Sequence record: MZ956761.1
From: a phage
Direction: 5' to 3' (one strand)
Length of the DNA: 64,000 nt
Part shown: positions 40,456-61,409 of the stretch, one piece after another
Layout of the letters: every line of letters begins with the position of its first letter
Position numbering within the stretch: position 1 is the stretch's first letter
Program-made: the position numbers and the translations under genes
The notes under the pieces: model-generated
What the model was told of the DNA's origin: nothing
What the model saw: the letters and a program-made list of their open reading frames with translations, nothing else
The model's database searches: none

Positions 40456-40476
40456 AAAATTAATTAGGAAAATAAA

Positions 40477-40785: not shown

Positions 40786-40812
40786 AAAACAAATGTGAGA
40801 TTGGAGAATAAA

Positions 40813-41046: not shown

Positions 41047-41085
41047 GTTTACTTTTAGATAGGGTAGTGATACTATTACCCTATC
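41047..41085 (+). promoter_or_regulatory. early promoter with stem-loop (PeSL-like), copy 3
   Basis: GTTTAC-N18-TACTAT with inverted repeat GATAGGGTA/TACCCTATC around the -10. Confidence 0.5.
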
Positions 41086-41104
41086 AACTACTGAGGAGAA
41101 TAAA

Positions 41105-44336: not shown

Positions 44337-44340
44337 CATT

Positions 44341-44503: not shown

Positions 44504-44546
44504 GTTTACATCCCCGTTCTTCCATGGTACTATACAACTATCAACT
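44504..44546 (+). promoter_or_regulatory. T4-type early promoter
   Basis: GTTTAC-N18-TGgTACTAT followed by conserved ACAACTATCAACT; AT-rich upstream element. Confidence 0.5.
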
Positions 44547-44576
44547 ACTGATATAGAAAACAACTTGGAGAACGAA

Positions 44577-44840
44577 ATGGATAATTACGGCGAACTGTTC
44601 AACTTCTTTATGAAATGCGTTTCAGAAGATTTCGGTCGTACAGTGAATGATATTAAAGTTATCGGTCCTGATCATCCGATGTTTGAAACTTACGCAGTAA
44701 TGGGTAATGAAGATGGTCAGTGGTATACTGTAAAGGTTGTGATTAATATGTTCACGGCAGAAGGTTATGTTAAACTGTCTTCTAAAGTTTACCATGATAA
44801 CGATGAAATCGCAGAAGAATATTTCAATAATATGAAATAA
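44577..44840 (+). CDS. hypothetical early protein
   Basis: 87 aa from ATG with GGAG SD (track ORF begins at TTG 44565). Confidence 0.5.
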   Translation: MDNYGELFNFFMKCVSEDFGRTVNDIKVIGPDHPMFETYAVMGNEDGQWYTVKVVINMFTAEGYVKLSSKVYHDNDEIAEEYFNNMK

Positions 44841-44842
44841 TT

Positions 44843-44872
44843 GTGTACAAACACCAAGGACGGTGTTATTAT
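44843..44872 (+). promoter_or_regulatory. early-promoter-like element (variant -35)
   Basis: GTGTAC-N18-TATTAT followed by AGACTTATCA box shared with the 45062 copy. Confidence 0.35.
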
Positions 44873-44908
44873 AGACTTATCAAAACAAATACAGAAACGG
44901 AGAAATAA

Positions 44909-45073
44909 ATGACTACTTTAATTATTTGGTTTGACGAAAATGAAGAAACATACTGCGTGAACATTGGCGAAAGCCCAATGCCAGAATTTGAATCTTCGGA
45001 TAAAAACTCGGTTGTATCTTGGGCTGAAGGTTATAAAGCAGCAAAAGGCGATGTTGAAATAGTTTACAACTAA
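44909..45073 (+). CDS. small hypothetical protein
   Basis: 54-aa ORF with GGAG SD, below the track cutoff. Confidence 0.4.
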   Translation: MTTLIIWFDENEETYCVNIGESPMPEFESSDKNSVVSWAEGYKAAKGDVEIVYN

Positions 45074-45091
45074 GTATGAAGGCGTTACTAT
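45062..45091 (+). promoter_or_regulatory. T4-type early promoter
   Basis: GTTTAC-N18-TACTAT followed by AGACTTATCA. Confidence 0.45.
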
Positions 45092-45117
45092 AGACTTATC
45101 ATCACAAGGAAAACATT

Positions 45118-45453
45118 ATGAAACGTAACTTTAGTAAAGCTTTTTGTAATAGAAATGATTATCCTGAAGAGCTTTTTGAATCTAAGGAATTTAAAGAGTT
45201 TAACGAACGTTCTCAAAACATGCCTATACAGTGGGTATTGGATTATGCTAACCGTATCTTTGAAGGCGTACGTTTCGTTGGCCCCGATGATGAAGCTCCT
45301 TATTTTAAAAAGGCTTGGGAACTCGCCAACCAAGCATATATCAATGCTTTAGAATCTTCTAAAGGTACTGACGATGATTTTATTTTATTGGCTATCAATG
45401 ATGCCGTTGTCGAGGCCATCGACGCCTTTATCGACGAGCTAGACGAAGAATAA
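45118..45453 (+). CDS. hypothetical acidic protein
   Basis: 111-aa ORF with AGGA SD. Confidence 0.5.
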   Translation: MKRNFSKAFCNRNDYPEELFESKEFKEFNERSQNMPIQWVLDYANRIFEGVRFVGPDDEAPYFKKAWELANQAYINALESSKGTDDDFILLAINDAVVEAIDAFIDELDEE

Positions 45454-45483
45454 GTTTACAATCTATTAGAAACGTGATATTAT
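45454..45483 (+). promoter_or_regulatory. T4-type early promoter
   Basis: GTTTAC-N18-TGaTATTAT. Confidence 0.45.
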
Positions 45484-45510
45484 CTAATTATACCAACCTA
45501 AGGAAATACT

Positions 45511-46104
45511 ATGAACACACTGAAGAAAATTGTTGAGTTTATTCGCACTAAACTTGGTTCTGCTATGGCTAAAAATTTATCTGTTGAAGAACAGTATACT
45601 GCTGCGGCAGCAAAACTGCTTGATAAAATTAAAGATCTAAAAACTGCTTCTGTTAAATCTATTAATGAAGAAAAGCGTATTCGTGAACTTATTGTCGAAA
45701 AGAATAAGCAGGCCGAATCAAAAGAGCGTGAAATTCGCAAGCTTCTTTCCGAAGGTCAAGATGTAACAATGCATGCTAAACTCGGCTTGCTATATCGTCG
45801 AACAGCTGAGCAGTTGACTACTAAAGCTGATGGTTATGCTGAAATGCGAATTGAAATCGCTAAGAAAGTAGTTGAATTGGATGATGCACGCCAAGAACTT
45901 GCGGTTAAATTGGAATATATCCGTGAAACTCGTGCAGCAAATGCCCTTGGAATTAGTACTGCTGATGATGTAGTTGAAATTGCAGCACTGACTAAGGTTG
46001 ATATTGAAGATACTCTTGCTCGAGTTGAAACCTTTAACGGTAATATTTCTGGGGTTGAAACTACTTCTGCTGATGTTCAGGAATACATTAATTCTCTGAA
46101 ATAA
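45511..46104 (+). CDS. coiled-coil protein, possibly PspA/IM30-like
   Basis: 197 aa, heptad-rich helical sequence; family assignment is impression only. Confidence 0.45.
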
Positions 46105-46109
46105 TGATA

Positions 46110-46125
46110 AGGGGCTTCGGCCCCT
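46110..46125 (+). terminator. hairpin terminator
   Basis: AGGGGC-TTCG-GCCCCT after the stop at 46104. Confidence 0.5.
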
Positions 46126-46145
46126 ATTACTTGGAGTAAATAGGA

Positions 46146-46754
46146 ATGAAAATGCAAAGTGATTTCAATTCAATGTTTGAAGAGTTCCAAAGACAGGTTG
46201 ATGTTCCAGACCAATTACTAAATGCTCTTAAACGTATGGCAGAAGGACGTAATTATTATTGGGGTTCTTCATATGAAACTGATGAAAGTCTTTCTGGAAG
46301 ATTTTCCAGAGGTAAAAAGTCTTTAATACGTCCTGGAATACTTATTAACAGTATTGAATCAATTCATTCATTGACATGTGATTTTGATGTTGAATTTACT
46401 GATTTCATTTCTCCTGAATGGTCAGTTTGTTATTTAAACGACGATTTTGATTATCTCGGTGTTTATAGTTTAAGTGACGCATGGTTTAAACGTAACTTAC
46501 AAAAGTCAAATTTATTTTATATTGATACTACGGTAAAATTTCAGGGCAAGAAATATTTTTTTACTCTTATAGTTGATTCTGAAACGAAGTATGAAAATAA
46601 ACGTATTCTTAGTAAAAAGAATATCTTAACTATTGTTGATGATCTTTTTGATAAATTCGTAGAAAATCCCAATTTTGAAAGCGATTTATTACTAGAAAAA
46701 TTTGTGAAGGAATGTAGAGAATATGTCAAAGCCATCAATGTATCTTCCAAGTAA
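46146..46754 (+). CDS. hypothetical protein, first of four coupled genes
   Basis: 202 aa; C-terminal FVKECREYVK overlaps next gene start. Confidence 0.5.
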   Translation: MKMQSDFNSMFEEFQRQVDVPDQLLNALKRMAEGRNYYWGSSYETDESLSGRFSRGKKSLIRPGILINSIESIHSLTCDFDVEFTDFISPEWSVCYLNDDFDYLGVYSLSDAWFKRNLQKSNLFYIDTTVKFQGKKYFFTLIVDSETKYENKRILSKKNILTIVDDLFDKFVENPNFESDLLLEKFVKECREYVKAINVSSK

Positions 46755-47115
46755 ACCGTTGAAGTATGAATTAAAGCGCCAGCTAATTTCTACTGATGTA
46801 TTAATAGGTCCTGTAATAGCTGTATCATTTGTAATTCTACTGGGGGTTGGAATAGTTATAGATGTTATGACTGATATTGAATCTAATATAATATTTGCGT
46901 CAACATTAATTCTTCCAATGATAGTTCCATTTTTATTAGTACCTGTAAATTGGGTAGGATACTGGTATCAAGGAAGGCATTATCGTAAACGCGTACGTGA
47001 TTGGAAAGCACAGTGTAAAAAGATTAAAAAGGAACATCAGCTTAAACTTGCTGCGTATGAATTTGATGAAATTATGAAATTTGTTAAGGAATCACGATGC
47101 AAAAGCCAAAACTAA
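46723..47115 (+). CDS. small membrane protein
   Basis: 130 aa with hydrophobic segments; C-terminal FVKESRCK. Confidence 0.5.
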   Translation: MSKPSMYLPSKPLKYELKRQLISTDVLIGPVIAVSFVILLGVGIVIDVMTDIESNIIFASTLILPMIVPFLLVPVNWVGYWYQGRHYRKRVRDWKAQCKKIKKEHQLKLAAYEFDEIMKFVKESRCKSQN

Positions 47116-47459
47116 ATAAAGTCAAATATTCGCTTCCTGAGTCATTTTTAATTTTTGCTGTGGCGTTGGCTGCAGCTCTTGCGGGTAGTCTTTTTGGATT
47201 GTTAATTGACTGTCTTATTTTAAACATTGACGGCACAGTAAATATAATAGAAGTTTGGAGTGAACTTCACTATACTAAAATTATTTCATTATTTTCATTC
47301 TTTGGTACCATGTTATATTTTCATTATGATAATTTTAAAATAAATTGGCAAAGAAAAAAAGATTACAAAATACAATTAAAAGAATATAATAGCTACATGT
47401 CTTATATTGAAAAAGAATCAATGGAAGAGTTTGTGAGTGATTGTAGGAAAATTAAATGA
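47097..47459 (+). CDS. small membrane protein
   Basis: 120 aa, two hydrophobic segments; C-terminal FVSDCRKIK. Confidence 0.5.
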   Translation: MQKPKLNKVKYSLPESFLIFAVALAAALAGSLFGLLIDCLILNIDGTVNIIEVWSELHYTKIISLFSFFGTMLYFHYDNFKINWQRKKDYKIQLKEYNSYMSYIEKESMEEFVSDCRKIK

Positions 47460-47944
47460 TTTTAAAAACTCGCTGGTATGATTTAGATGATGGGGATGAT
47501 GGCATTTCAGTTGATAGAGTTGACTGGAATGGTTGTTCCGAAGATATGAAAAATTTGTTGATTAGGGAGTTTAGAATGGGATATCAAGCAGCTAAGCCAT
47601 TTACTGTAACAGATGATAAGTTCGTATGTATTCAAAACGGTCGCGCTAAGTTAACGAATGCTGATTGGTTCACAGATAAGAAGGTTCTTCTGTGGTATAT
47701 CATTAGTCTTCCTATATCATCGTTCGTATTTTACTTTTTTATAAAAAATCCAATGGACAGAATAGGAGATTGGGTTCTTTTAACTATACTTGTTAATATT
47801 TTTACAGCAGCAGTATTATCAGGAATATGGTACATGTTCATTGAAATGCCATGGCGGTTACGCAGACAGCAAAAGATTTTTGATGAAAAGAAATATACTC
47901 AAAATTTAAATAACTTTATCACTGAATGCAGGAAATTAAAATGA
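47456..47944 (+). CDS. small membrane protein
   Basis: 162 aa, hydrophobic segments; C-terminal FITECRKLK. Confidence 0.5.
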   Translation: MILKTRWYDLDDGDDGISVDRVDWNGCSEDMKNLLIREFRMGYQAAKPFTVTDDKFVCIQNGRAKLTNADWFTDKKVLLWYIISLPISSFVFYFFIKNPMDRIGDWVLLTILVNIFTAAVLSGIWYMFIEMPWRLRRQQKIFDEKKYTQNLNNFITECRKLK

Positions 47945-48381
47945 AAACACTATCAGCTGGTATTATCTTTATGACAGAAGATAAAGATTTATTTATGGGT
48001 CGGGTTACTGGTTCTCGTAAGCCTGGAATGATGGCACACCGCTGGGATATTCCAAAGGGCCGTGTAGAAAATTCTGATTTAAGCGCATTAGATGCAGCAC
48101 GAAGAGAATGTTTAGAAGAGACTGGTTTTAGCAATTATAATCCAGACCTTCTAGAAGACCTAGGTGTATTTAAATATTCTAGTAATAAAGACCTACAGTT
48201 ATTTTATTATACGATTCCAGTAGAGCATGAGATGTTTAGAAATTGCCATTGCGAGTCTTATTTTGAAAATAAAGACGGTGTTATGATTCCAGAGATGGAC
48301 GCTTTTGCTCTTATTCCTCGTACTCAGTGGCAATATGTGATGGGTCCTTCACTTTACCGAATAATGAACAACCTCTTTTAA
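47926..48381 (+). CDS. nudE: NudE Nudix hydrolase
   Basis: 151 aa; Nudix box GRVENSDLSALDAARRECLEETGF; start could also be the Met at 47941. Confidence 0.8.
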   Translation: MQEIKMKTLSAGIIFMTEDKDLFMGRVTGSRKPGMMAHRWDIPKGRVENSDLSALDAARRECLEETGFSNYNPDLLEDLGVFKYSSNKDLQLFYYTIPVEHEMFRNCHCESYFENKDGVMIPEMDAFALIPRTQWQYVMGPSLYRIMNNLF

Positions 48382-48912
<531 letters not shown>

Positions 48913-48916
48913 AGTT

Positions 48917-48946
48917 GTTTACTTTCTCCTAGAATTGTGATAGTAT
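48917..48946 (+). promoter_or_regulatory. T4-type early promoter
   Basis: GTTTAC-N18-TGaTAGTAT upstream of the internal-protein gene. Confidence 0.45.
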
Positions 48947-48983
48947 ATTCACAGTTACTAATTAAAATATTTAAAGGAAACAC

Positions 48984-49301
48984 ATGAAAACGTATAAAGA
49001 ATTTATTGCAGAATCTGCTGCAGGACAACGTGTAGAAGGCGGTTATATCTGGATTGAACAAGTTGAGCCGCCGAGTCGCACTTCTACGGGTAAATGGAAA
49101 ATCACTGTTGATGGTCCTGGTGGTAAACGTAGGACTCTTAAAGAAATTAACGGGTACTATGAAGAAGCTCTTTCTGACGCGGGTACTTATATGATGCAAA
49201 TCATGATTAAAAACCCAGAAAATCGTTTTGCGGCTAGAGTTTTCCGCCGTATTGGAAATAAGCTTTATGATGCATATTCTAAAAACTTTCCTAAAGAATA
49301 A
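48984..49301 (+). CDS. internal head protein (IPII/IPIII-type)
   Basis: 105 aa; N-terminal MKTYKEFIAE capsid-targeting tag. Confidence 0.7.
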   Translation: MKTYKEFIAESAAGQRVEGGYIWIEQVEPPSRTSTGKWKITVDGPGGKRRTLKEINGYYEEALSDAGTYMMQIMIKNPENRFAARVFRRIGNKLYDAYSKNFPKE

Positions 49302-49317
49302 AAATTAAAGGATACAC

Positions 49318-49791
49318 ATGAAAACATATCAAGAATTTATTACTGAAGCAGCTATTAATTCTCAAATTATTGCTGAATCTTTTACTGATCTTTTGAAATT
49401 TAAAAAAGGTCAAAAAATCACTGCTGTATTGGATGATGGTACAGAAGTTGAGATGGATGTACAGGGATATAATTATGCAGTAGATGGAAAACTGTATAAT
49501 AAATCTCATGCTAAATTTGATTCATTTGACGACTTTGTTAATACAGTTGAAGATGAAAAAACTCGTAGATCCATTGCAACTGGTGATGCTAAGGTTCTTA
49601 TGGCACATGGTCATGAACGCATTCGCGCTAAACAGAATAAAATGGGTGAAGATAATTTTGCATTAGTTGGTTATCAATCTGGTAAACAAACTTATGGCTA
49701 TCAGCGTACTGCTACCATGTATAACAAAAATGGTAAAATCGCTTTCGTGAATAGCAAAGGCTCTATTCAGTACGTCAAATCATTCAAATAA
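49318..49791 (+). CDS. internal head protein (IPII/IPIII-type)
   Basis: 157 aa; N-terminal MKTYQEFITE capsid-targeting tag. Confidence 0.7.
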   Translation: MKTYQEFITEAAINSQIIAESFTDLLKFKKGQKITAVLDDGTEVEMDVQGYNYAVDGKLYNKSHAKFDSFDDFVNTVEDEKTRRSIATGDAKVLMAHGHERIRAKQNKMGEDNFALVGYQSGKQTYGYQRTATMYNKNGKIAFVNSKGSIQYVKSFK

Positions 49792-49944
49792 GCAAATAAG
49801 AAATATGGGAACAAGCTGGACCTCATGATTCTATGAGGGATTCCCGCCAACCTGTAATAAGGTCGAGCCCAAGCGCGGTAATGGGTAAATACAGAAATGG
49901 ACAATTCATGCGCCATGGAATGGCCCAAATTTAGAGAGAATAAA

Positions 49945-50484
49945 ATGAGAACATTTTTAACTGGTCCTTATCTATCCCTGATGAATGCTTTTACACACCA
50001 TTCTGATGCTAGAGTAGAAGAAATTTGTAAAAACGAATATATCCCGCCATTTGAAGACTTACTCAAACAGTACTGCACACTTCGCATAGATGGTGGACGT
50101 CAATCCGGCAAATCAATTGCTGTGACTAACTTTGCTGCTAATTGGCTGTATGATGGCGGAACAGTTATTGTTCTTTCTAATACTTCAGCTTACGCTAAAA
50201 TTTCTGCAAATAACATCAAAAAGGAATTTTCGCGTTATTCTAATGATGATATACGTTTTCGTTTATTTACTGATTCTGTGCGCAGTTTTATTGGTAATAA
50301 AGGAAGCAAGTTCAGAGGTTTATCGCTTTCGCGAATTTTGTATATAATTGATGAGCCTGTCAAATCTCCTGATATGGATAAGATTTATAGTGTCCATATT
50401 GACACTGTACACTACTGCTGTAATAGTAAATGTTGCATTGGTGGTATTACTCGTCCGCAGTTTTTCGTAATCGGAATGCAATGA
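49945..50484 (+). CDS. small P-loop NTPase-like protein
   Basis: 179 aa from ATG with GAGAG SD; Walker A-like GGRQSGKS and Walker B-like ILYIIDEP. Confidence 0.5.
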   Translation: MRTFLTGPYLSLMNAFTHHSDARVEEICKNEYIPPFEDLLKQYCTLRIDGGRQSGKSIAVTNFAANWLYDGGTVIVLSNTSAYAKISANNIKKEFSRYSNDDIRFRLFTDSVRSFIGNKGSKFRGLSLSRILYIIDEPVKSPDMDKIYSVHIDTVHYCCNSKCCIGGITRPQFFVIGMQ

Positions 50485-50810
50485 TGACAGATACACAGCT
50501 TTTCGAATATCTCTATTTTTCGCCAAAAACTATTAAAAATAAATTGGTAAATCATTTTGAAATTTTGGCAAATAACAACATTTTGAGCGAATTTTATCCC
50601 AAGCAATACAAATTACAAAAAGGTGTATTCAAAGGATGCAGAGTTTTGTGCACTGCTCCTAATGCACGGCTAATGAATAAAATTCCATATTTTACCATGG
50701 AATTTATTGATGGACCTTTTAAAGGATTAATTACGCAAAGTTTAATGGCATATGATTCTGAGCCGTTTTTAATTAAAGAACAATCTTGGATAAATTTATT
50801 TTCTAATTGA
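50481..50810 (+). CDS. hypothetical protein coupled to the P-loop ORF
   Basis: About 110 aa; ATGA start/stop overlap. Confidence 0.45.
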
Positions 50811-50817
50811 GGTTTAT

Positions 50818-51180
50818 ATGAAAGCATATCAAATTCTTGAAGGCACACATAAAGGTACTATTTATTTTGAAGATGGTATTCAGGCACGAATTATTGTCTC
50901 TAAAACCTTTAAAGAGGACTCTTTTGTAGACCCAGAAATTTTCTATGGTTTGCACGCCCGTGAAATTGAAATTGAAACACAACCTACAGTTAAAATTGAA
51001 GGTGGTCAGCACCTGAACGTTAACGTTCTGCGTCGTGAAACTTTGGAAGATGCAGTTAAGCATCCGGAAAAATATCCGCAGCTGACCATCCGTGTATCCG
51101 GTTATGCAGTTCGCTTTAACTCTCTGACTCCGGAACAGCAGCGCGACGTTATCGCTCGTACCTTTACTGAGAGTCTGTAA
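50818..51180 (+). CDS. autonomous glycyl-radical cofactor (GrcA/YfiD-like; T4 Y06I type)
   Basis: 120 aa; C-terminus [29 protein letters not shown] carries the glycyl-radical motif and matches E. coli GrcA as recalled. Confidence 0.85.
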
Positions 51181-51401
51181 TGGCAAAGATAATTATTGAA
51201 GGTTCTAAAGATGTGCTAAATGCTTTCGCAGAATGGTTTAGTAATTCAGGCGAACAGCAATTTAATGAAGCGTGGAATATGGGTGATATTAGTGGAATTT
51301 ATCCTACGACAGAAATTTCTGTTCAGGGATATGGCATTCATGAACCTATTCGTTTAGTTGAATATGATTTATGTACTGGTGAGGAAGTCAAATATGATTG
51401 A
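51180..51401 (+). CDS. hypothetical small protein (vs.5 position)
   Basis: 73-aa ORF, start overlaps previous stop. Confidence 0.5.
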   Translation: MAKIIIEGSKDVLNAFAEWFSNSGEQQFNEAWNMGDISGIYPTTEISVQGYGIHEPIRLVEYDLCTGEEVKYD

Positions 51402-51660
51402 AGATATTAAAGGTTATAAGCCACATACTGAAGAGAAAATCGGTAAAGTAAATGCTATTAAAGACGCTGAAGTTCGTTTAGGACTTATCTTTGATGCTTT
51501 ATACGATGAATTTTGGGAAGCATTTGATAGCTGTGAAGATGATGAACTCGCGAAGAATTATGCCGAAAGCCTCGATCAGTTAACTATTGCTAAAACGAAA
51601 CTCAAAGAAGCCAGTATGTGGGCTTGTCGTGCAGTGTTCCAACCAGAGGAAAAATACTAA
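51394..51660 (+). CDS. hypothetical small protein (vs.4 position; candidate Acb2-type)
   Basis: 88 aa from Met of MIEDIKG with GAGGAAG SD; position corresponds to T4 vs.4 by gene counting. Confidence 0.45.
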
Positions 51661-51938
51661 TGGCTCAATTAAGTGCAGGGTTTGGTTATGAGTATTATAC
51701 TGCACCTCGTCGTGTATCTGCCGCTCCTAAGAAAATTCAAAGTCTTGATGACTTCCAGGAAGTAGTCCGTAAAGCTTTCCAAGACTATGCACGTTATCTT
51801 AAAGAAGATTCACAGGACTGTCTCGAAGAAGATGAAATTGCTTACTATGAGCAGCGTCTTGAACAGCTTAAAAACTTACATGAGGTTCGTGCAGAAGTTT
51901 CAAAGTCTATGAATAAATTGATTAGATTTAAAGAATAA
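51660..51938 (+). CDS. hypothetical small protein (vs.3 position)
   Basis: 92 aa from Met of [13 protein letters not shown] overlap. Confidence 0.5.
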
Positions 51939-51940
51939 CT

Positions 51941-51989
51941 GTTTACTTTTCCTCTTGACTGTGGTATAATTTTTCTATCAGTTAAGAGG
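51941..51989 (+). promoter_or_regulatory. T4-type early promoter with flanking inverted repeat
   Basis: GTTTAC-N18-TGgTATAAT; CCTCTTGAC/GTTAAGAGG arms around the -10. Confidence 0.55.
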
Positions 51990-51997
51990 AGAATAAC

Positions 51998-52459: not shown

Positions 52460-52466
52460 GGTAAGC

Positions 52467-53012: not shown

Positions 53013-53352
53013 AATTTTGGTTTTATGTATAGGATTAATTTCATTTTCTGCTTCTGCGTCAGCAGATACATCATATACTGAAATTAGAGAATATGTAAAC
53101 CGCACTGCGGCAGATTATTGTGGGAAAAATAAAGCATGCCAAGCTGAATTTGCACAGAAATTAATATATGCATATAAAGACGGAGAAAGAGATAAATCAA
53201 GCAGATACAAAAACGATACATTATTAAAACGATATGCTAAAAAGTGGAATACATTAGAATGTTCAGTTGCGGAGGAGAAAGATAAAGCCGCTTGTCATTC
53301 AATGGTTGACCGTTTGGTAGATTCTTATAATCGAGGATTGAGTACTAGATGA
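53005..53352 (+). CDS. small secreted Cys-containing protein
   Basis: 115 aa; Sec-type signal peptide MTKILVLCIGLISFSASASA; four Cys. Confidence 0.5.
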   Translation: MTKILVLCIGLISFSASASADTSYTEIREYVNRTAADYCGKNKACQAEFAQKLIYAYKDGERDKSSRYKNDTLLKRYAKKWNTLECSVAEEKDKAACHSMVDRLVDSYNRGLSTR

Positions 53353-53816: not shown

Positions 53817-54025
53817 ATATACATTATCCACATCCGTTTGATCCTAAAAACAAAGCAGTAATTATTCGTCAATGGGAACGCATTTGCCGTACTAAATGTC
53901 CAATTAATAGTCAACATGATGTAAATAAAGACTATATTGGAACATTCGTTGAATATACCTTTATTGATAAGAAAGGTCGTAAACAGCATGTAGAAGAATA
54001 TTGCTTAAAGGTTACATGGTTATGA
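53813..54025 (+). CDS. hypothetical small protein
   Basis: 70 aa; ATGA overlap with previous gene. Confidence 0.45.
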   Translation: MNIHYPHPFDPKNKAVIIRQWERICRTKCPINSQHDVNKDYIGTFVEYTFIDKKGRKQHVEEYCLKVTWL

Positions 54026-54228
54026 GCCAAACTAGTATTCTTAAAAATGCCCATTGTGAAAAGTGTAAATGGCCTGTTGTTTTTGCTTTATGTAATGATG
54101 AAATGGCTTGTGATTTCGATTATTGGTGCTATTGTTCTAATAAAGGATGCATCAATCATAAAGGTGAAGGATTTTATTCGGGATTTTATCCTTATCCTGA
54201 TTTCGTTAAAGAAGGTAAACCAAAATGA
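54016..54228 (+). CDS. small Cys-rich (zinc-ribbon-like) protein
   Basis: About 70 aa with CEKC...C...C...CYC...C; start Met at 54016 or 54022. Confidence 0.45.
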   Translation: MVMSQTSILKNAHCEKCKWPVVFALCNDEMACDFDYWCYCSNKGCINHKGEGFYSGFYPYPDFVKEGKPK

Positions 54229-54401
54229 ATGATGATTTAAAATATCAATTATTACGTGAACTTGATGTTTTGATTGAACTTTCTGCACAAAAAGGATTTA
54301 TAATTGGATCGGGTCAAAAAGACCCTAACGGTCATTCAATCGTAGCGGTTATGAATCAGAAACGAGTCATTTTAAAACTTTTGGGGATTGACATACTGTG
54401 A
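54225..54401 (+). CDS. hypothetical small protein
   Basis: 58-aa ORF below track cutoff; ATGA overlap upstream and GTGA overlap downstream. Confidence 0.4.
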   Translation: MNDDLKYQLLRELDVLIELSAQKGFIIGSGQKDPNGHSIVAVMNQKRVILKLLGIDIL

Positions 54402-54583
54402 GTCTAAGCAAAGAACAAAAAGATAAATTGTTTGAGCTTATCCATGAACTTCTAGATGAGCATACAGAAGCAAACACCTTTTATGATGAATACGGCCCGC
54501 TATCTCCCGAACAGCAGGAAGAATTTGCTGATCGGTTTGATAAGAAAGAAAATGAATTAATAGCTTATGTGAATACGCTTTAA
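54398..54583 (+). CDS. small acidic helical protein
   Basis: 61 aa, GTG start; resembles the small paralog family at 56402-57315. Confidence 0.45.
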   Translation: MSLSKEQKDKLFELIHELLDEHTEANTFYDEYGPLSPEQQEEFADRFDKKENELIAYVNTL

Positions 54584-54592
54584 GAAGGTGAT

Positions 54593-55174
54593 ATGGCGAG
54601 TTTAATTTTTACTTATGCAGCAATGAATGCTGGAAAATCTGCTTCTCTTTTGACTGCTGCACATAATTATAAAGAACGTGGAATGAGTGTATTAGTTCTT
54701 AAGCCTGCTATTGATACTCGCGATTCTGTCTGTGAAGTCGTTTCTCGCATTGGAATTAAGCAGGAAGCGAATATTATTACAGATGATATGGATATTTTCG
54801 AGTTCTATAAATGGGCTGAAGCACAAAAAGATATTCATTGCGTATTTGTAGATGAAGCTCAGTTTTTAAAAACTGAACAGGTGCATCAATTGAGCCGAAT
54901 TGTTGATACATATAATGTTCCTGTTATGGCTTATGGGCTAAGGACTGATTTCGCTGGAAAATTATTTGAAGGTTCTAAAGAACTTTTAGCGATTGCAGAT
55001 AAACTTATTGAACTAAAGGCAGTTTGTCATTGTGGTAAAAAAGCGATTATGACAGCTCGATTAATGGAAGATGGAACACCAGTTAAAGAAGGTAATCAAA
55101 TCTGTATTGGTGATGAAATTTATGTTTCTTTGTGTAGAAAACATTGGAATGAATTAACTAAAAAGCTCGGTTAG
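54593..55174 (+). CDS. tk: thymidine kinase
   Basis: 193 aa; P-loop YAAMNAGKS and C-terminal Cys zinc site. Confidence 0.9.
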   Translation: MASLIFTYAAMNAGKSASLLTAAHNYKERGMSVLVLKPAIDTRDSVCEVVSRIGIKQEANIITDDMDIFEFYKWAEAQKDIHCVFVDEAQFLKTEQVHQLSRIVDTYNVPVMAYGLRTDFAGKLFEGSKELLAIADKLIELKAVCHCGKKAIMTARLMEDGTPVKEGNQICIGDEIYVSLCRKHWNELTKKLG

Positions 55175-55216
55175 TGCAAAAGTTATAAATAGGTTTATCT
55201 AACTAAAGGGGTATAT

Positions 55217-55429
55217 ATGCTACAATTAACTGAAAAGCAACTTCGCAATCTTACTGTGCTTCAATTAGATGAAATTCGTAGGGAAGTTGGAAATATCATT
55301 TCAGCTTTGCGTCGAGAAGTATCACTCAACCAATCTCCGGCAGACTATACTAGATTGCGAAATTTTGAAAAATACCTTGATAAAGTTAAGGCCGTGCATC
55401 GGCATAAAGTAAATACAGGACAAAAATGA
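55217..55429 (+). CDS. hypothetical protein (position of T4 rI.1)
   Basis: 70-aa ORF between tk and rI. Confidence 0.5.
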
Positions 55430-55441
55430 TAGGAGGCCTTT

Positions 55442-55735
55442 ATGGCCTTAAAAGCAACGGCACTATTTGCCATGCTAGGATTGTCATTTGTTTTATCTCC
55501 ACCGATTGAAGCGAATGTCGATCCTCATTTTGATAAATTTATGGAATCTGGTATTAGGCACGTTTATATGCTTTTTGAAAATAAAAGCGTAGAATCGTCT
55601 GAACAATTCTATAGTTTTATGAGAACGACCTATAAAAATGACCCGTGCTCTTCTGATTTTGAATGTATAGAGCGAGGCGCGGAGATGGCACAATCATACG
55701 CTAGAATTATGAACATTAAATTGGAGACTGAATGA
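55442..55735 (+). CDS. rI: RI lysis-inhibition regulator (antiholin)
   Basis: 97 aa with N-terminal signal-anchor MALKATALFAMLGLSFVLS; matches T4 RI length and position. Confidence 0.8.
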   Translation: MALKATALFAMLGLSFVLSPPIEANVDPHFDKFMESGIRHVYMLFENKSVESSEQFYSFMRTTYKNDPCSSDFECIERGAEMAQSYARIMNIKLETE

Positions 55736-56118
55736 AATTCAGCGACTTTTCACAAAGTGGAAAACCTTCAAAGGCAGATGAATACTTAGGTTTATTAATG
55801 GCTGCACAAGCTTATTTTCATTCTGCACATTTTGAAACTAAAAGTTATGCTAGACACAAAGCATACGATTTTATTTTCTCTGAGTTACCAGATTTGATTG
55901 ATAAATTTGGTGAGCAATATTTGGGGTATTCTGGTAGAAAATACACACCTTCAATTCCAGATGCCAGTAAACTTCCTACCGACACAATTAAAATGATTGA
56001 TCGCATACTAGACCAATCTAACAGCATTTATAAAGAAATGCCTCCAGCCATCCAAAGCACGATAGATGATATTACTGGAATGTTTTACCAAAGTAAGTAT
56101 CTTCTTTCCCTCGAATAA
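55732..56118 (+). CDS. hypothetical protein (position of T4 rI.-1)
   Basis: 128-aa ORF, ATGA overlap with rI. Confidence 0.5.
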
Positions 56119-56122
56119 CATT

Positions 56123-56146
56123 AGTCTCCTTCGGGAGACTTTTTTC
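56123..56146 (+). terminator. intrinsic terminator
   Basis: AGTCTCC-TTCG-GGAGACT hairpin followed by TTTTT. Confidence 0.6.
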
Positions 56147-56155
56147 ATTTTACCG

Positions 56156-56185
56156 GTTTACTTTCCGTTTGAGCTGTGGTACTAT
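56156..56185 (+). promoter_or_regulatory. T4-type early promoter
   Basis: GTTTAC-N18-TGgTACTAT. Confidence 0.5.
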
Positions 56186-56213
56186 ACAACCATCGGATAA
56201 AGAGGAGAACATC

Positions 56214-56402
56214 ATGAAAATTGAAGCACTTAATCAAGAAGGAAATATCTACGTCATCATTAATGGTGATTTTTTCGTCGACATGGATGAAGTTACTAGT
56301 GAAGAACTTGTAGAACTTCTTAAGAAACGCTATAATATGTGTGATGAAGTTGCAACTCGCATGGCATGTGCAATATTCTCTCTTTCATATGTGGTGGAAT
56401 AA
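56214..56402 (+). CDS. hypothetical small protein
   Basis: 62 aa from ATG with GAGGAG SD (track ORF is 5'-extended). Confidence 0.5.
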
Positions 56403-56605
56403 TGATTAGTATCGAACAAGCGGATAAAATTAAGGAATTGGTAGCTTTAATTCGTAAAGCAGATGAGGAACTTAGTGACTTTGCTTGGTTTTCATCAGGC
56501 ATTGCAAATAAAGGTATTGAAGAATTTGAAGCTAAAGTTGATAATGCTTTAGAAGCGTTAGATATGTTTCTTGATGAAATTATCGATCATAATACGAGAG
56601 TTTAA
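56402..56605 (+). CDS. small helical protein, paralog family member
   Basis: 67 aa; TAATG overlap. Confidence 0.5.
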   Translation: MISIEQADKIKELVALIRKADEELSDFAWFSSGIANKGIEEFEAKVDNALEALDMFLDEIIDHNTRV

Positions 56606-56607
56606 GT

Positions 56608-56802
56608 ATGCTAACACGTGAACAGTTTGAAAAAATCATTAAATTAGCACGTGATATTGAAATAGATTCATATCAATTAGCAGTTGAGCATTGTGAAGGA
56701 TATTCATACGACGGTATAGAAGCAGCTAAAAGAGATTTGGATAAATCCAAAGCTAAGTTAGTTCAATATCTTGAAATGATTAGGTGGAATAATGAAAACT
56801 GA
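56608..56802 (+). CDS. small helical protein, paralog family member
   Basis: 64 aa. Confidence 0.5.
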   Translation: MLTREQFEKIIKLARDIEIDSYQLAVEHCEGYSYDGIEAAKRDLDKSKAKLVQYLEMIRWNNEN

Positions 56803-56965
56803 AAAGCAGATGTTTTTAATGAAGCTAATTGAAGAATATGCTAATGCAGTTTCTGACTATGAGTATTCTGCTCGGGAAAGAGGTACGGCTTTCGCTAAAG
56901 AAGAATTGAAAATCATGGTTGATGCTCATACAAAGCTTCAGAATTTTATCGAAAATGTCATTTAA
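56792..56965 (+). CDS. small helical protein, paralog family member
   Basis: 57-aa ORF below track cutoff, overlapping previous stop. Confidence 0.4.
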   Translation: MKTEKQMFLMKLIEEYANAVSDYEYSARERGTAFAKEELKIMVDAHTKLQNFIENVI

Positions 56966-56967
56966 TG

Positions 56968-57010
56968 GTTTACAAGTTGACAAGGTTATGGTATAGTAAT
57001 CTTGTCAACT
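56968..57010 (+). promoter_or_regulatory. T4-type early promoter with flanking inverted repeat
   Basis: GTTTAC-N18-TGgTATAGT; AGTTGACAAG/CTTGTCAACT arms around the -10. Confidence 0.5.
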
Positions 57011-57129
57011 GCCAAGGAGAAGAGAATGAAAGTTTTGTTTGTTGTGTATGTGATGATTCAATATAATTACCCAATGTTTACTTATAATTTGGTAAACAAC
57101 ATTATTGATATGATTCAGAGGAGTATGTA

Positions 57130-57315
57130 ATGACAAGTGAGCAGGCTTTTAAATTAAGAGAATTAATTGAGACGTATAGTAAAGCTGTTCATACATCAAC
57201 AATTATTGATGAATCAGCTTTCTCCGGACATGCTAACAAGATTAAATACAAAACTCTTATGGAAGAAGCTAAAGTAAATCTTGATTCTTATATTGAAACT
57301 TTAATTGGTAAATAA
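57130..57315 (+). CDS. small helical protein, paralog family member
   Basis: 61 aa. Confidence 0.5.
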   Translation: MTSEQAFKLRELIETYSKAVHTSTIIDESAFSGHANKIKYKTLMEEAKVNLDSYIETLIGK

Positions 57316-57316
57316 T

Positions 57317-57859
57317 ATGAAAGCTGTAATTGAAACAACTGATTTGTTCGGTGACCTGGTTATCGAAAAACGTGATAATGTATACGTTCTGACGCAGGAA
57401 GACGATAGTATTACTATTCTTCCTATGGAATTGCCTGCGATTTTATCTTATGCTCCCTCAGGAGTTACCGGTGTAACTAATATTACAGACGACCTCCAAG
57501 TTCGTTTTTATCGTGGCACTCACGGTGGTAATATTGAAACTGAACTTGCGTGTCTTTCTATCAACAATTGGGCAACATTCGTTGCCAAGGTGAAAGAATT
57601 CTTGGAATCTGAAACAGTCGAAACACCCGAAAAGGCTAAACTTCAATGGGCTAAAGATCGCGGTGCTAGCATTATTAATCCAGTAGCTGCAAATTATACT
57701 ACGACTTTGGATGTCAAGACTTCTTATGAAGATGGCGATGTCGTACTTGTTCGCCAAATTGATGATTCTCGAGCACATATTGTCACATTTACCAAAGACG
57801 AAGCTATTGCACTAAAGACTTATCTTGATTCTGTTATTCCAACTATGATTTCAAAGTGA
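57317..57859 (+). CDS. hypothetical protein, tandem paralog A
   Basis: 180 aa from Met of MKAVIET; C-terminus AIALKTYLDSVIPTM. Confidence 0.5.
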   Translation: MKAVIETTDLFGDLVIEKRDNVYVLTQEDDSITILPMELPAILSYAPSGVTGVTNITDDLQVRFYRGTHGGNIETELACLSINNWATFVAKVKEFLESETVETPEKAKLQWAKDRGASIINPVAANYTTTLDVKTSYEDGDVVLVRQIDDSRAHIVTFTKDEAIALKTYLDSVIPTMISK

Positions 57860-57865
57860 GGAAAT

Positions 57866-58387
57866 ATGTTTATTTCAAGTGGAAGTGGTTTAATTCGTGT
57901 TGAATTTAAAAATGACATCTTCCTTAGTCAAGGAGATGATATTATTAAAATGAGTTATGACGAAATCAAGAAAATTTGTCATGCTCTTGAAAGTCATGGA
58001 AAAGTGAACGCTGTTATTGATATTGGCGATTTATGGGTGACACTTTATGAAGTATCCGAAGGATTTAACATTGAAGATGAAAATAACATTTTAGCTATTG
58101 ATAAAAGAAGTGATTTGTTTGATGTATTAAAAGTTTATGAACAGTCAAATGGCGGAAGAAAAGCTGCATTGATTTATCAAAAACCGCATTCATGTGGAAC
58201 TGCTTCAATCATTTCAAATATTGAAGATGAAGTTGATACTTATATGTGTGTTTTAAAAGCTGGTGGTGACCGTCATCCGGATTTTATTTCTATTCGTCAA
58301 AACAATGGAGAAATTTCATTATCAAAATCAGAAGCTGAAGCTATGATTAAGTATTTAACAACTGTTACGCCTTCAATGAAAGGATAA
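57866..58387 (+). CDS. hypothetical protein, tandem paralog B
   Basis: 173 aa; C-terminus AEAMIKYLTTVTPSM. Confidence 0.5.
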   Translation: MFISSGSGLIRVEFKNDIFLSQGDDIIKMSYDEIKKICHALESHGKVNAVIDIGDLWVTLYEVSEGFNIEDENNILAIDKRSDLFDVLKVYEQSNGGRKAALIYQKPHSCGTASIISNIEDEVDTYMCVLKAGGDRHPDFISIRQNNGEISLSKSEAEAMIKYLTTVTPSMKG

Positions 58388-58389
58388 TT

Positions 58390-58851
58390 ATGATTATTAA
58401 TGAAAACTCTTGGCATTATAAATTATTCAAATTGTTTAACGATGAATGGCAACGACCTAAGACACTATGCGCATATTTTTGGTCTATTGTCATTCCTACA
58501 TTTTTCGTTTCTATTTTTGGGTGTGCTATACTCGTAGGGCTAACAATTATTTGTGCAGAAAGCCTACAACGTTGGCTTATTTTCGGTAGTTTATGGACTC
58601 TTCTTCCATCGGCATTTATACTTGCGCTTTTGGTTGTTTTACTTATTATCGGTTCATTTGTTATTCCTGCACATTTGCGTGAAAAATATAAAGATTATAA
58701 ATGGAAAAAGGATTATGCTTTACACGTAGAAAATATTGATAGAGCGTATAAAGGTTTACCTCCTATTCAACCCAAGAAATCGGTTATCGTTGAATTTTTA
58801 AAAGCTCGTAAAGCTAAAGTATGTCCTGTTATTGAATATAAGGCTGAATGA
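58390..58851 (+). CDS. two-TM inner-membrane protein
   Basis: 153 aa; two long hydrophobic helices and a basic C-terminal tail. Confidence 0.5.
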   Translation: MIINENSWHYKLFKLFNDEWQRPKTLCAYFWSIVIPTFFVSIFGCAILVGLTIICAESLQRWLIFGSLWTLLPSAFILALLVVLLIIGSFVIPAHLREKYKDYKWKKDYALHVENIDRAYKGLPPIQPKKSVIVEFLKARKAKVCPVIEYKAE

Positions 58852-59861
58852 TGAAAACAGTAATGAAAAGCTATTTTGGTAGTCATCTTTATGGAACTTC
58901 TACCCCAGAATCTGATGTAGATTTTAAAGAAATTTTTGTTCCTCCTGCTCGCGATATTCTTATCGGAAATGTTAAAGAGCACATGAGTAAAAACACCAAC
59001 AACACATCATCTAAAAACACTAAAGATGATATTGACCATGAACTATACAGTCTTAAGTATTTCTTTAAATTAGCAGCAGATGGTGAAACTGTAGCATTGG
59101 ATATGCTCCACACTCCACCTGAACTAGTGGTTAAATCTGATTTACCTGATGTATGGAAATTTATCCAAGACAATCGTTCACGGTTTTATACAACTAACAT
59201 GAAATCCTATTTAGGATATGTCCGCAAGCAAGCTTCTAAATACGGTGTCAAGGGTTCTCGTTTGGCCGCATTACGTGATGTATTGAAAGTAGTTAATCAA
59301 ATCCCTGACCAGTGGGTTGATTATCAAGAAGACGGTTCTATTAAGCAGCGTCGCACTAAAGTTGAAGATATTAAGCATCGTCTTCCAGAGAACGAATTCT
59401 GTGAATGGGTATTCCATAATCATGAGAAAACCGGTCCACAAACGTTCTACACTGTGTTGGGTCGTAAATATCAGACAACACTTTCTCTTATTGAGCTTAA
59501 GCAGTCACTGAACAAATTAGATGCTGAATACGGCGAACGTGCTCGTAAGGCTGAAGCGAATGAGGGCATTGACTGGAAAGCTCTGAGTCATGCTTGTCGT
59601 GGTGGACTCCAACTATTGGAAATTTACAAAACTGGTGACTTAGTCTATCCACTTCAAGACGCTCCATTTATTCTCGACGTGAAGCTGGGTAAACACCCAT
59701 TTAAAACTGTTCAAGAGTTTTTGGAAGATGTGGTCGATCAAGTAGAAGCAGCATCCATTGAAGCTTCTAAGAACGGTATGCAGCAAAAAGTAGACATGGG
59801 TTTTTGGGATGACTTCCTTGAGAGGGTTTATCTTGAAAACCACCGAAGTTATTATAAATGA
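58848..59861 (+). CDS. Pol-beta-superfamily nucleotidyltransferase
   Basis: 337 aa; N-terminal motif FGSHLYGTSTPESDVDF (hG[GS]-x10-DhD); ATGA overlap with the upstream membrane protein. Confidence 0.55.
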   Translation: MMKTVMKSYFGSHLYGTSTPESDVDFKEIFVPPARDILIGNVKEHMSKNTNNTSSKNTKDDIDHELYSLKYFFKLAADGETVALDMLHTPPELVVKSDLPDVWKFIQDNRSRFYTTNMKSYLGYVRKQASKYGVKGSRLAALRDVLKVVNQIPDQWVDYQEDGSIKQRRTKVEDIKHRLPENEFCEWVFHNHEKTGPQTFYTVLGRKYQTTLSLIELKQSLNKLDAEYGERARKAEANEGIDWKALSHACRGGLQLLEIYKTGDLVYPLQDAPFILDVKLGKHPFKTVQEFLEDVVDQVEAASIEASKNGMQQKVDMGFWDDFLERVYLENHRSYYK

Positions 59862-59864
59862 TAA

Positions 59865-59888
59865 GGGAGCCTTCGGGCTCCCTTTTTT
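59865..59888 (+). terminator. intrinsic terminator
   Basis: GGGAGCC-TTCG-GGCTCCC hairpin followed by TTTTTT. Confidence 0.6.
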
Positions 59889-59912
59889 ATTTCAAAAATT
59901 TTTCACAAAACT

Positions 59913-59955
59913 GTTTACAAGCATAAAGCTTTATGGTACTATACAACTATCAACT
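59913..59955 (+). promoter_or_regulatory. T4-type early promoter
   Basis: GTTTAC-N18-TGgTACTAT plus ACAACTATCAACT; palindrome CATAAAGCTTTATG in the spacer. Confidence 0.5.
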
Positions 59956-59976
59956 GATACGGATTTGGAGAATAAA

Positions 59977-60945
59977 ATGAAAACTGTAACTATCAATAAG
60001 GGTATCTACTTCGGTAAAGAAATCTCTGGAACTTTTGAGCTCTTAGGTGAATGGTTCCCAGATAATGCTCCGGTAGATGCACAAGGAGATGGTAAAGTTT
60101 TTGTTGAAATTGACGGTAAACGTCGCGGTGTTTGGGTTTACAAATCAGACATTTCATATGATGGTGTAAAAGTTGAAGAAGTTAAAGAATCATATGAAGA
60201 TATGAAAACCCGCATTAATAAAAGATTTAATGTTATGGGAATGATGACGAATGGTATTATTAACGGAAACATTCGTTCATTAATTATCTCTGGTGCGGCA
60301 GGTATTGGTAAAACGTATTCTTTAGATAAAGCTTTAAATAAAGCAAATGATATTGGATACATTGAGTATAAAAGCATTAATGGTAAAATCTCTGGTATCG
60401 GTCTTTATGAACAGCTCTGGAATAATCGTGAAGAGAATTCTGTCCTTTTGATTGATGATGTGGATGTTTTCTCTGATATGGACATTCTTAATCTTCTGAA
60501 AGCTGCTTTGGACACTGGAGAGACCCGTAAAGTCTGCTGGAGCACTGCATCTTCTTACTTAGAAGAAAAAGGCATTGAGCGTGAGTTTGAATTTAAAGGA
60601 ACGATTGTTTTTATCACAAACGTTGATATTGACCGCGAATTAGACCGTGGTACTAAACTTGCTCCACATTTACAAGCATTAGTGTCCCGCTCAGTTTATT
60701 TAGATTTGGGTGTTCACACTAATGAAGAAATTATGGTCAGGGTTGAAGATGTTATTCTTTCAACCGACATGATGCAAAAGCGCGGTCTTTCTGATGAAGA
60801 AACTTATAAAGCATTATCATGGATGAAAGTCAATGTTAACCGTTTACGCAATGTTTCACTGCGTACTGCTCTTTATCTTGCTGACTTTATTATGACCGAC
60901 AAAAATGGTTGGGAAGAAATCGCTGAGGTTACTCTTCTGAAATAA
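59977..60945 (+). CDS. P-loop ATPase (AAA-like)
   Basis: 322 aa from Met of MKTVTINKG; Walker A SGAAGIGKT and Walker B VLLIDDVD. Confidence 0.55.
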   Translation: MKTVTINKGIYFGKEISGTFELLGEWFPDNAPVDAQGDGKVFVEIDGKRRGVWVYKSDISYDGVKVEEVKESYEDMKTRINKRFNVMGMMTNGIINGNIRSLIISGAAGIGKTYSLDKALNKANDIGYIEYKSINGKISGIGLYEQLWNNREENSVLLIDDVDVFSDMDILNLLKAALDTGETRKVCWSTASSYLEEKGIEREFEFKGTIVFITNVDIDRELDRGTKLAPHLQALVSRSVYLDLGVHTNEEIMVRVEDVILSTDMMQKRGLSDEETYKALSWMKVNVNRLRNVSLRTALYLADFIMTDKNGWEEIAEVTLLK

Positions 60946-61046
60946 TTCATAAGAGGACTTCTATGACAAAAAGGCAGTTCAGAAATAGATTATATGGACT
61001 GCCATCAAAAAGATGACTAGAATTAAACTGGTAAATGGAGGTAGTG

Positions 61047-61349
61047 ATGTTATACTCAAAGGCTCGTGAAATTTACGAAACTAAAATTAAAGAAGCTGTA
61101 CTTCAATTCGCAACAACGATGCGATGGACAAATGATTGGGAGTATTCAAAAAATCATAAGAAGCCCATGGTGACAAGAAAGGCTCATATGTTAGTGTTAA
61201 TAGACCGTGAGCAGATTAAAGCCCGAGAAGCCCTCCAGAATCATAAAAAGGCTGCTTTTGAATGGTTTATGGATAACACTGCTCCTGAGACTAAGAAAGC
61301 GGTGAGCGCGTGGTTCAGTGGAAAAAATTGTGAAAGAAGTTTCTTTTAG
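61047..61349 (+). CDS. hypothetical protein
   Basis: 100 aa from Met with GGAGG SD (track ORF starts 4 codons earlier). Confidence 0.45.
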   Translation: MLYSKAREIYETKIKEAVLQFATTMRWTNDWEYSKNHKKPMVTRKAHMLVLIDREQIKAREALQNHKKAAFEWFMDNTAPETKKAVSAWFSGKNCERSFF

Positions 61350-61351
61350 TG

Positions 61352-61394
61352 GTTTACAAGACTGTTCCTTTGTGGTACTATACAACTATCAACT
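61352..61394 (+). promoter_or_regulatory. T4-type early promoter
   Basis: GTTTAC-N18-TGgTACTAT plus ACAACTATCAACT. Confidence 0.5.
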
Positions 61395-61409
61395 ACGGAG
61401 GAACACAAA

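Follow-up and report, generated by a model that had tools for sequence, protein, structure and literature searches.

We describe thirteen copies of a promoter motif in the phage sequence record MZ956761.1, of which a stretch of 64,000 nucleotides (nt), hereafter the window, was analysed. The copies are very probably the sigma-70 early promoters of a T4-like phage, built as exchangeable modules, about half of them overlapped by hairpins, that divide the early region into insulated gene cassettes. The window comes from a Tequatrovirus and is ~96–97% identical to the phages RB18, RB27, vB_Eco_Solly and teqhal; between 44700 and 45250 it contains 551 nt at 100% identity to Escherichia phage ADUt (OQ466432.1). 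Its 38–64 kb part (+ strand) corresponds to the minus-strand early region of T4, from gene 3/1 to nrdC.5.

Anatomy of the early promoters and their T4 counterparts

A first-pass annotation of the window had listed thirteen recurring units, and at every one of these positions we found a −35-like hexamer, an 18-nt gap (15 nt plus TGn) and a −10 hexamer. The strict formula proposed for them, GTTTAC and TG-N-TA(C/T)TAT, is exact at eight sites, but one base off at the other five: GTGTAC at 44843, CG for TG at 45062, TAGTAT at 48917, TATAAT at 51941 and TATAGT at 56968. The −35 element is therefore GTTTAC at 12/13 sites and GTGTAC at one, with 18-nt spacing at all 13, and the extended −10 element has TG at 12/13 sites (45062 having CG), followed by TACTAT, TATTAT, TAGTAT, TATAAT or TATAGT. 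At −30 to −1 relative to the −35 hexamer, the consensus displays the A-rich and T-rich runs of an UP element, and one UP motif, TTTCACAAA, is common to four sites.

The annotation had also placed the units before early genes, and this holds throughout: all thirteen are on the + strand at 40.4–61.4 kb, 56–73 nt upstream of a co-oriented Shine–Dalgarno (SD) sequence and ATG. The first two serve internal-protein (IP) genes, IPa (40477–40734; promoter at 40417..40459, from −35 to ~+7) and IPb (40813–41046; promoter at 40747..40789, with an UP region identical to that of 40417), and the third serves trna.4 (41105–41290; promoter at 41047..41089). They are followed by the promoters of e.8 (44577–44840; 44504..44546), of orf54, a 54-aa open reading frame (ORF) at 44909–45073 (44843..44885, the site with GTGTAC), of e.7 (45118–45453; 45062..45104, without TG), of e.6 (45511–46104; 45454..45496) and, 3′ of gene e, of orf105 (48984–49301; 48917..48959, with TAGTAT as its −10 hexamer). 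The regB promoter and its hairpin occupy 51941..51993. At mobD.5, an intrinsic terminator (56123–56140 plus a T-run) precedes the promoter at 56156, forming a true terminator–promoter composite at 56123..56198. The promoter of mobD.2 (57026–57130), with TATAGT, is at 56968..57010; that of nrdC.10, at 59913, again follows an intrinsic terminator (59863–59884), the whole element spanning 59863..59955. The last element, at 61352..61405, serves nrdC.8 (61410–61937).

The pattern GTTTAC-N14–16-TGNTANNAT has 10 matches in the window, all on the + strand, compared to 0.03 expected from shuffled sequences. When one mismatch was allowed and both strands of the whole window were scanned, 14 + strand sites were found, all at 38.9–61.4 kb, together with a lone stray − strand match at 53100; the late-gene half of the window, 1–38 kb, contained none. 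A scan with the generic sigma-70 consensus gave no enrichment over shuffles (77 vs. 76.4; 56 vs. 56.1), and the signal is thus specific to the GTTTAC/TGn motif. The description of the sites as near-identical was an overstatement. The 30-nt cores have a mean pairwise identity of 61% (47–80%) and the 15-nt spacers a mean of 34%; what the sites share is ~17 consensus positions, while the spacers are unrelated and near-identity is confined to a few subfamilies.

We considered the possibility that the thirteen sites are middle (MotA) promoters and rejected it, since there is no TGCTT box at −30. Among the promoter sites checked, a MotA-type identity fits only 38939 and 41992. The former is the gene 1 middle promoter (38939..38968, + strand), which is not one of the thirteen; its MotA box, TAATGCTTCA, overlaps an early-like GTTTAA and is followed by TGTTATAAT, and the site is PM1 in the T4 record X03016.1. 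The latter is the MotA-type middle promoter of the tRNA genes (41992–42020, ATATGCTTTA). A likely third, CCGCTTTATACCAAGGATGGTATAAT, is located at ~61940–61965, before nrdC.7.

T4 early promoters have reportedly been listed by Liebig and Rueger, by Wilkens and Rueger in 1994 and by Miller et al. in 2003. In T4, the motif is present at the orthologous sites, those of ipI, trna.4, e.8, e.7, e.6, ipIII, regB, mobD.5, mobD.2, nrdC.10 and nrdC.8, and the promoter sites are conserved in other relatives as well. The orthologues of 40417 and 41047 were annotated in 1985 as the early promoters PE2 and PE1 in X03016.1, where a “pot. stem-loop structure” overlaps both. T4 early promoters are described as consisting of UP, −35, TGn and −10 elements with extra consensus regions (Hinton 2010, PMC2988021), with GTTTAC at −36 to −31 (PMC1524935), and the regB promoter has been called “a typical early promoter” (PMC3014915). 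The sites in the window share with them the UP element, GTTTAC at −36 to −31, TGn, TAnnnT, the conserved positions near +1 and the genomic positions. Compared to T4, this phage has two extra copies, at 40747 (the second IP gene) and 44843 (orf54), and lacks the denV promoter; there is otherwise no essential difference.

The first-pass annotation had likened the units to promoter-early stem-loops (PeSLs), and the match is sound: the sites fit the consensus TTTACW-N17-TAYWAT given for PST/T4 PeSLs and linked there to indels (Comeau et al. 2014, PMC4122927), and the T4 orthologues of two of them are annotated as promoters with stem-loops. Both sets combine a strong early promoter and an A/T-rich upstream sequence with a stem-loop at a variable position, which in the published class also includes stem-loops overlapping the −10 element (PMC2839356, PMC4122927), and both are concentrated in hyperplastic early regions; like the published class, the sites here tend to lie at the edges of indels that separate close relatives. 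They differ in that a convincing stem-loop is present at only ~7/13 sites here. We also set apart a class of stems that pair with the SD, whereas the PeSL text, in the portions available to us, treats stem-loops as terminators or attenuators without that distinction. There is no apparent difference between the IP loci of this phage and the IP locus polymorphism of T-even phages (Repoila et al. 1994), as far as the latter can be judged from its citation in PMC4122927. Because T4 early promoters have been annotated since 1985 and the PeSL class is published, the thirteen sites are a rediscovery of T4 early promoters and PeSLs, and as such are already known.

Core modules and breakpoints

A 21-mer, GGTACTATACAACTATCAACT, had been noted at three of the promoters, and it is indeed exact at 44526 (e.8, 44526–44546), 59935 (nrdC.10, 59935–59955) and 61374 (nrdC.8, 61374–61394), where none would be expected. 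With the start position placed by its spacing, it covers −14 to +7 and so takes in the start region and the discriminator as well as the extended −10 element. The initial 14 nt of TGGTACTATACAAC recur at a fourth site, 56156. T4 has the identical 21-mer at 70674, 55362 and 53921, and the positions of the three copies are shared by T4 and 4/6 other relatives (RB18, Solly, Pinarejo and G8). This constancy suggests that they are stable functional promoter cores and not fresh products of recombination. As to the proposal that the 21-mers are substrates for recombination, in phage phiC600P9 a junction falls inside the 21-mer, but it is the sole such junction observed, and the loci are otherwise fixed in T4 and four of the six relatives. 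A length of 21 nt is also said to be short for T4 homologous recombination, as reported by Singer et al. in 1982. In phage G8, the exact 21-mer is found six times genome-wide, all on one (early) strand; the extra copies in this genome (MK373787.1) are at ~25416, 163909 and 167049, respectively 3′ of gene 43, ~30 nt upstream of motA and in the small-ORF cluster on the ndd side.

The syntenic region of RB69 contains 18 promoters built to the same plan, but with another dominant core, a 24-mer, ATGTTATAGTAGTCCTATCAAAAC, that is identical at four loci (2034, 2387, 6492 and 21157). A second RB69 core subfamily, TGTTATTATAGACCTATC, occurs at three neighbouring promoters of the nrdC region. When orthologous cores of the window and RB69 were compared, 8/19 free positions matched at trna.4 and 9/19 at regB. 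The exception is e.8, where RB69 has kept the T4-type 21-mer (18/19 free positions). RB69 uses the same host and polymerase, yet has homogenised another core, which points to descent or exchange of modules and not to convergence only. The pattern argues for promoters that form subfamilies of core modules, which are copied from locus to locus, or exchanged, inside one genome.

A second short homology is found at the right edge of the cassettes. This SD/start module, TTGGAGAATAAAATGAAAAC(T/G), at the beginning of proteins starting with MKT, is common to the IP genes and nrdC.10 (40477–40520, 40813–40850, 48984–49020, 49318–49349 and 59977–59990). The T4 ipII and ipIII starts match window positions 49305–49349 at 91%.

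Gene content between the promoter copies, which the first-pass annotation had proposed to compare, varies among the seven relatives that we examined (T4, RB18, Solly, phiC600P9, Pinarejo, G8 and pSe_SNUABM_01). The orf54 cassette, bordered by the promoters at 44843 on the left and 45062 on the right, is absent in T4, RB18, G8 and phiC600P9. The e.7 gene, between 45062 and 45454, is deleted in Pinarejo, so that 45062 is also the left border of that deletion, with 45454 at the right edge of the e.7 deletion and replacement found in Pinarejo and SNUABM01. At 59913, phiC600P9 has a 514-bp insertion with two ORFs, whose left junction lies inside the 21-mer and after which nrdC.10 is driven by an IP-type module of ~55 nt that is nearly identical to that of 40747. 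The IP genes at 40477–41046 and 48984–49791 are swapped between relatives, with borders in the shared module of promoter, leader and MKT... targeting sequence; the promoter at 48917 is the left border of the second of these variable loci. In 596 phage records searched with the 551-nt probe, the main break classes were at 44840 and 45072, both at promoters, and the whole arrangement was kept in only 29/596.

In total, 51 breakpoint clusters were identified, of which 14 fall within −45 to +75 of a promoter, a zone that makes up 6.1% of the region (4.5-fold enrichment; naive binomial p = 1.5e-6). Counted per gene junction, a breakpoint is present at 9/13 promoter-bearing junctions compared to 14/44 others (odds ratio 4.8, p = 0.019). 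On the left, the cassettes are usually bordered by a stop codon or the −35 element; on the right, by the SD. Several observations weigh against a direct part of the promoters in these exchanges. When only spacers of at least 30 nt are considered, breakpoints are found at 9/13 promoter junctions and 4/10 others (p = 0.16). The promoter junctions at regB, mobD.5, mobD.2 and nrdC.8 are invariant in all seven relatives, and many indels have no border promoter, among them insertions of homing endonucleases such as segB and mobD, patches within genes and an insert flanked by terminators. At most junctions, moreover, the core between −35 and SD is swapped wholesale and is not a simple hybrid, and we rejected a simple crossover within the motif as the origin of the cassette junctions. 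The idea of promoters as drivers of gene shuffling therefore survives as an association (p = 0.019) that loses strength when gene boundaries and the length of spacers are taken into account (p = 0.16). The role of the promoters in recombination is associative: the cassettes appear to mark many sites of exchange, whether as cause or as survivor.

It could be argued that the likeness of the sites reflects nothing but convergent selection for the best recognition by the host polymerase, that the promoters have no role in recombination, and that breakpoints fall at promoters only because viable gains and losses end at gene boundaries. Such an explanation would accommodate the fixed positions of the 21-mers in T4 and most relatives, the e.8 core conserved even in RB69, the shrinkage of the 4.5-fold enrichment to a per-junction odds ratio that is non-significant among long spacers, and the usual replacement of junction cores in place of hybrids. 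We nevertheless consider it rather unlikely, since RB69, with the same host polymerase, carries different modules at orthologous loci and has homogenised its own core, identical at four loci, and since phiC600P9 has placed nrdC.10 under an IP-type module with an upstream junction inside the 21-mer. PeSL mini-circles found in RB49 and phi1 (Arbiol et al. 2010, PMC2839356) also speak against convergence alone. Chance matching in an A/T-rich genome, for which the unenriched generic scan might be cited, is refuted by the excess of motif matches and of 21-mers (3 vs. 0 expected), by the shared orientation and the distance of 56–73 nt to start codons, and by conservation in relatives; we give it practically no weight. 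Exchangeable promoter modules remain our preferred explanation.

Hairpins overlapping the promoters

The inverted repeats around the −10 elements that the first-pass annotation pointed out are real: the arms at 56968 are 56975–56988/56997–57010, and the 51951/51981 pair requires one G·U (z = −6.4). According to RNAfold calculations on the region −35 to +20, strong hairpins are present at five sites, 40417 (z = −4.8), 41047 (−3.6), 51941 (−6.4), 56968 (−4.7) and 61352 (−3.8), and weaker ones at 40747, where the hairpin is degraded, and at 48917. In the same region, no strong hairpin was found at 44504 or 59913, and none at 45062 or 45454. Canonical terminators are located upstream of the promoters at 56156, 59913 and 44504. 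An Rfam scan of 38–64 kb matched only 11 tRNAs, and no known RNA family at the promoter hairpins.

The hairpins fall into two classes. In class A, a stem of 9–13 bp hugs TGnTAnnAT. This class comprises 40417 (40427–40436/40447–40456), 41047 (~41058–41085) and 56968, in addition to T4 e.7 and many RB69 promoters. The stem sequences vary between modules while the structure persists, and G8 shows a compensatory change from TA to CG. In class B, the stem is formed between a pyrimidine-rich promoter spacer and the gene's SD. The members are regB (51941; hairpin 51947–51993), nrdC.8 (61352; hairpin 61363–61376/61392–61405, in which the spacer pairs with the SD sequence GGAGG) and, more weakly, e.8 (44504; p = 0.03 for the pairing of spacer and SD). 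At regB, the spacer TTTTCCTCTTGACTG pairs with CAGTTAAGAGGAGAA, which holds the regB SD. The 5′ arm is upstream of the presumed +1 in both classes, and the hairpins could therefore form only on transcripts that read through from upstream.

In class B, the predicted accessibility of the SD depends strongly on the origin of the RNA. It is 0.02 on read-through RNA and 0.62 on RNA from the own promoter for regB, and 0.01 and 0.54, respectively, for nrdC.8. The gene e hairpin, as a positive control, gave 0.00, and the minimum among 27 genes without a promoter of their own was 0.12. By these predictions, the SD is sequestered on long RNA and free on own-promoter RNA at 2/13 promoters, and three more are intermediate. 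Shuffling of the spacer abolishes the SD pairing effect at both regB and nrdC.8 (p = 0.005 each).

The regB hairpin was followed through 11 loci in three lineages obtained from a RegB search of IMG/VR, a sample with limited power for covariation; pairs were tabulated from minimum free energy structures anchored on the SD, as a MAFFT alignment of the leaders was out of structural register. The hairpin is kept in all three lineages (T4-type, RB69-type and a third) with different stem sequences. Double compensatory changes are seen in 6/15 pairs, the pairs next to the SD covary across the lineages, and the register is fixed relative to −35 and SD. The T4 and RB69 denV promoters show the same anti-SD design by eye, again with different sequences. 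At regB, nrdC.8, the Solly variant of 41047 and 56968, stems are kept through G·U pairs, which favours action as RNA over DNA cruciforms.

Comparable hairpins are known at T4 genes e, soc, 49 and I-TevI, which, all with late promoters, are the only cases listed of inhibitory start-region hairpins with an embedded promoter (PMC3014915). There, too, the SD is hidden in read-through RNA, while the gene's own mRNA starts inside the hairpin and loses the 5′ arm, and regB and nrdC.8 match the gene e control in their predicted accessibility. In the T4 cases, the embedded promoter is late (gp55, TATAAATA) and translation is delayed until late in infection, whereas in regB and nrdC.8 it is an early sigma-70 promoter, whose own spacer constitutes the 5′ arm. 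On the modelled structures, the regB and nrdC.8 sites would thus work like the e/soc/49/I-TevI family without being members of the described set. In the window, the gene e translational hairpin is at 48384–48420, and its 5′ arm contains two late promoters (TATAAATA at 48384 and 48397). We did not find an anti-SD spacer in T4-type early promoters described in the papers available to us, although older T4 literature may contain it.

We tentatively suggest that a subset of early promoters (regB, nrdC.8, more weakly e.8, and denV in T4 and RB69) may encode an anti-SD in the −35/−10 spacer, which would make upstream RNA untranslatable and RegB-resistant while leaving the gene's own RNA open. Class A hairpins have no U-tract and are therefore not canonical intrinsic terminators, and the spacer-shuffle test gave p < 0.05 at only 6/32 promoters of the window, T4 and RB69, which makes SD pairing a property of a subset only. 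We accordingly rejected SD sequestration as a general property of early promoters.

The alternative offered by the PeSL model, that the stem-loops are terminators or attenuators for the upstream genes and that SD pairing in class B is incidental, is a distinct possibility, though one that falls short of probable. In RB49/phi1, the only phages for which terminator activity and mini-circles have been shown by experiment, one PeSL stem-loop matched rrnB T1 in lowering expression of a downstream lacZ (Arbiol et al. 2010, PMC2839356). In X03016.1, the PE1 stem-loop bears the label “pot. IpI terminator”, and canonical terminators are indeed found before three of the promoters (56156, 59913 and 44504). 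The hairpins that span the −10 element, by contrast, are not followed by U-runs, and incidental pairing would not easily explain the fixed register of the regB stem to the SD, the covariation of the SD-adjacent pairs in three lineages, or a predicted sequestration equal to that of the proven gene e translational hairpin. The inverted repeats might also act as DNA, forming cruciforms at −10 that tune promoter opening or draw endonuclease VII to start recombination. The arms are symmetric about −10, and cruciforms would tie the stem-loops directly to recombination, but several stems are kept by G·T(U) pairs, which are stable in RNA and poor in DNA, and we regard this explanation as improbable. 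For class B, we continue to favour silencing of read-through RNA through the SD.

Neighbouring features and a model of the early region

Additional features were noted around the thirteen sites. A promoter-like sequence, GTTAAC-N15-TGGTATAAT, is located at 48808–48837, within the 3′ end of gene e and ~110 nt upstream of the 48917 promoter; it is also kept in T4, at 66607. The interval from e to vs.8 (48912–49897) is without T4 ipIII, ipII and denV and holds orf105 (PHROG 3966) and a 157-aa internal virion protein (PHROG 3155). In this phage, denV is apparently missing from its usual locus; in Solly, a 417-nt “endonuclease” gene, probably denV, is inserted at 48959/48969. Two identical copies of a 24-nt terminator hairpin (AGCCCCGACCGAAAGGTTGGGGCT with a T-run), at 43789–43812 and 44344–44367, flank a 520-bp insert (43821–44342). 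The insert contains a 157-aa ORF (43863–44336, PHROG 2280), which has a late-promoter box of its own, TATAAATA, at 43819. T4 and pSe_SNUABM_01 lack the insert and have one copy of the terminator each. The insert is a cassette bounded by terminator repeats and not by promoters. The tRNA cluster at 42089–43110 comprises eleven genes (Gln, Leu, Gly, Pro, Ser, Thr, Met, Tyr, Asn, His and Arg) compared to eight in T4. The segB homing endonuclease is absent among them; relatives differ there by segB or HNH insertions.

Taken together, the promoters consist of an A/T-rich UP element, a GTTTAC −35 element, an extended −10 element (TGn-TAnnAT) and, in the start region, a conserved Y-TATCA. By orthology with T4, for which this is established, they would be used immediately after infection by the host sigma-70 RNA polymerase, either unmodified or modified by Alt. 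Each promoter would give rise to a leader of 20–37 nt, followed by the SD and one or a few early genes. About half of the promoters are overlapped by hairpins with the 5′ arm in the promoter spacer, which only upstream read-through RNA would be able to form. Class A most likely attenuates upstream transcripts or marks their 3′ end, in line with the PeSL and Broida–Abelson reading, while class B, as structure prediction, the gene e control and covariation suggest, most likely silences translation and RegB cleavage on read-through RNA, the gene's own transcripts staying open. Each gene would in this way become an insulated cassette with the −35 element as its left border and the SD/start as its right one, and it is at such borders that many of the gains, losses and swaps of genes among close relatives are located.

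The analysis also yields an annotated map of promoters, terminators and hairpins in the early region of this phage, and suggests that the association of PeSLs with breakpoints is real, though weaker when gene boundaries are controlled for. If the anti-SD design is true, it would, together with the hairpins that hug the −10 element, produce insulated, context-independent cassettes, and could explain why the early region tolerates shuffling. If the regB anti-SD spacer is confirmed, it would extend a T4 design of translational control from late to early promoters.

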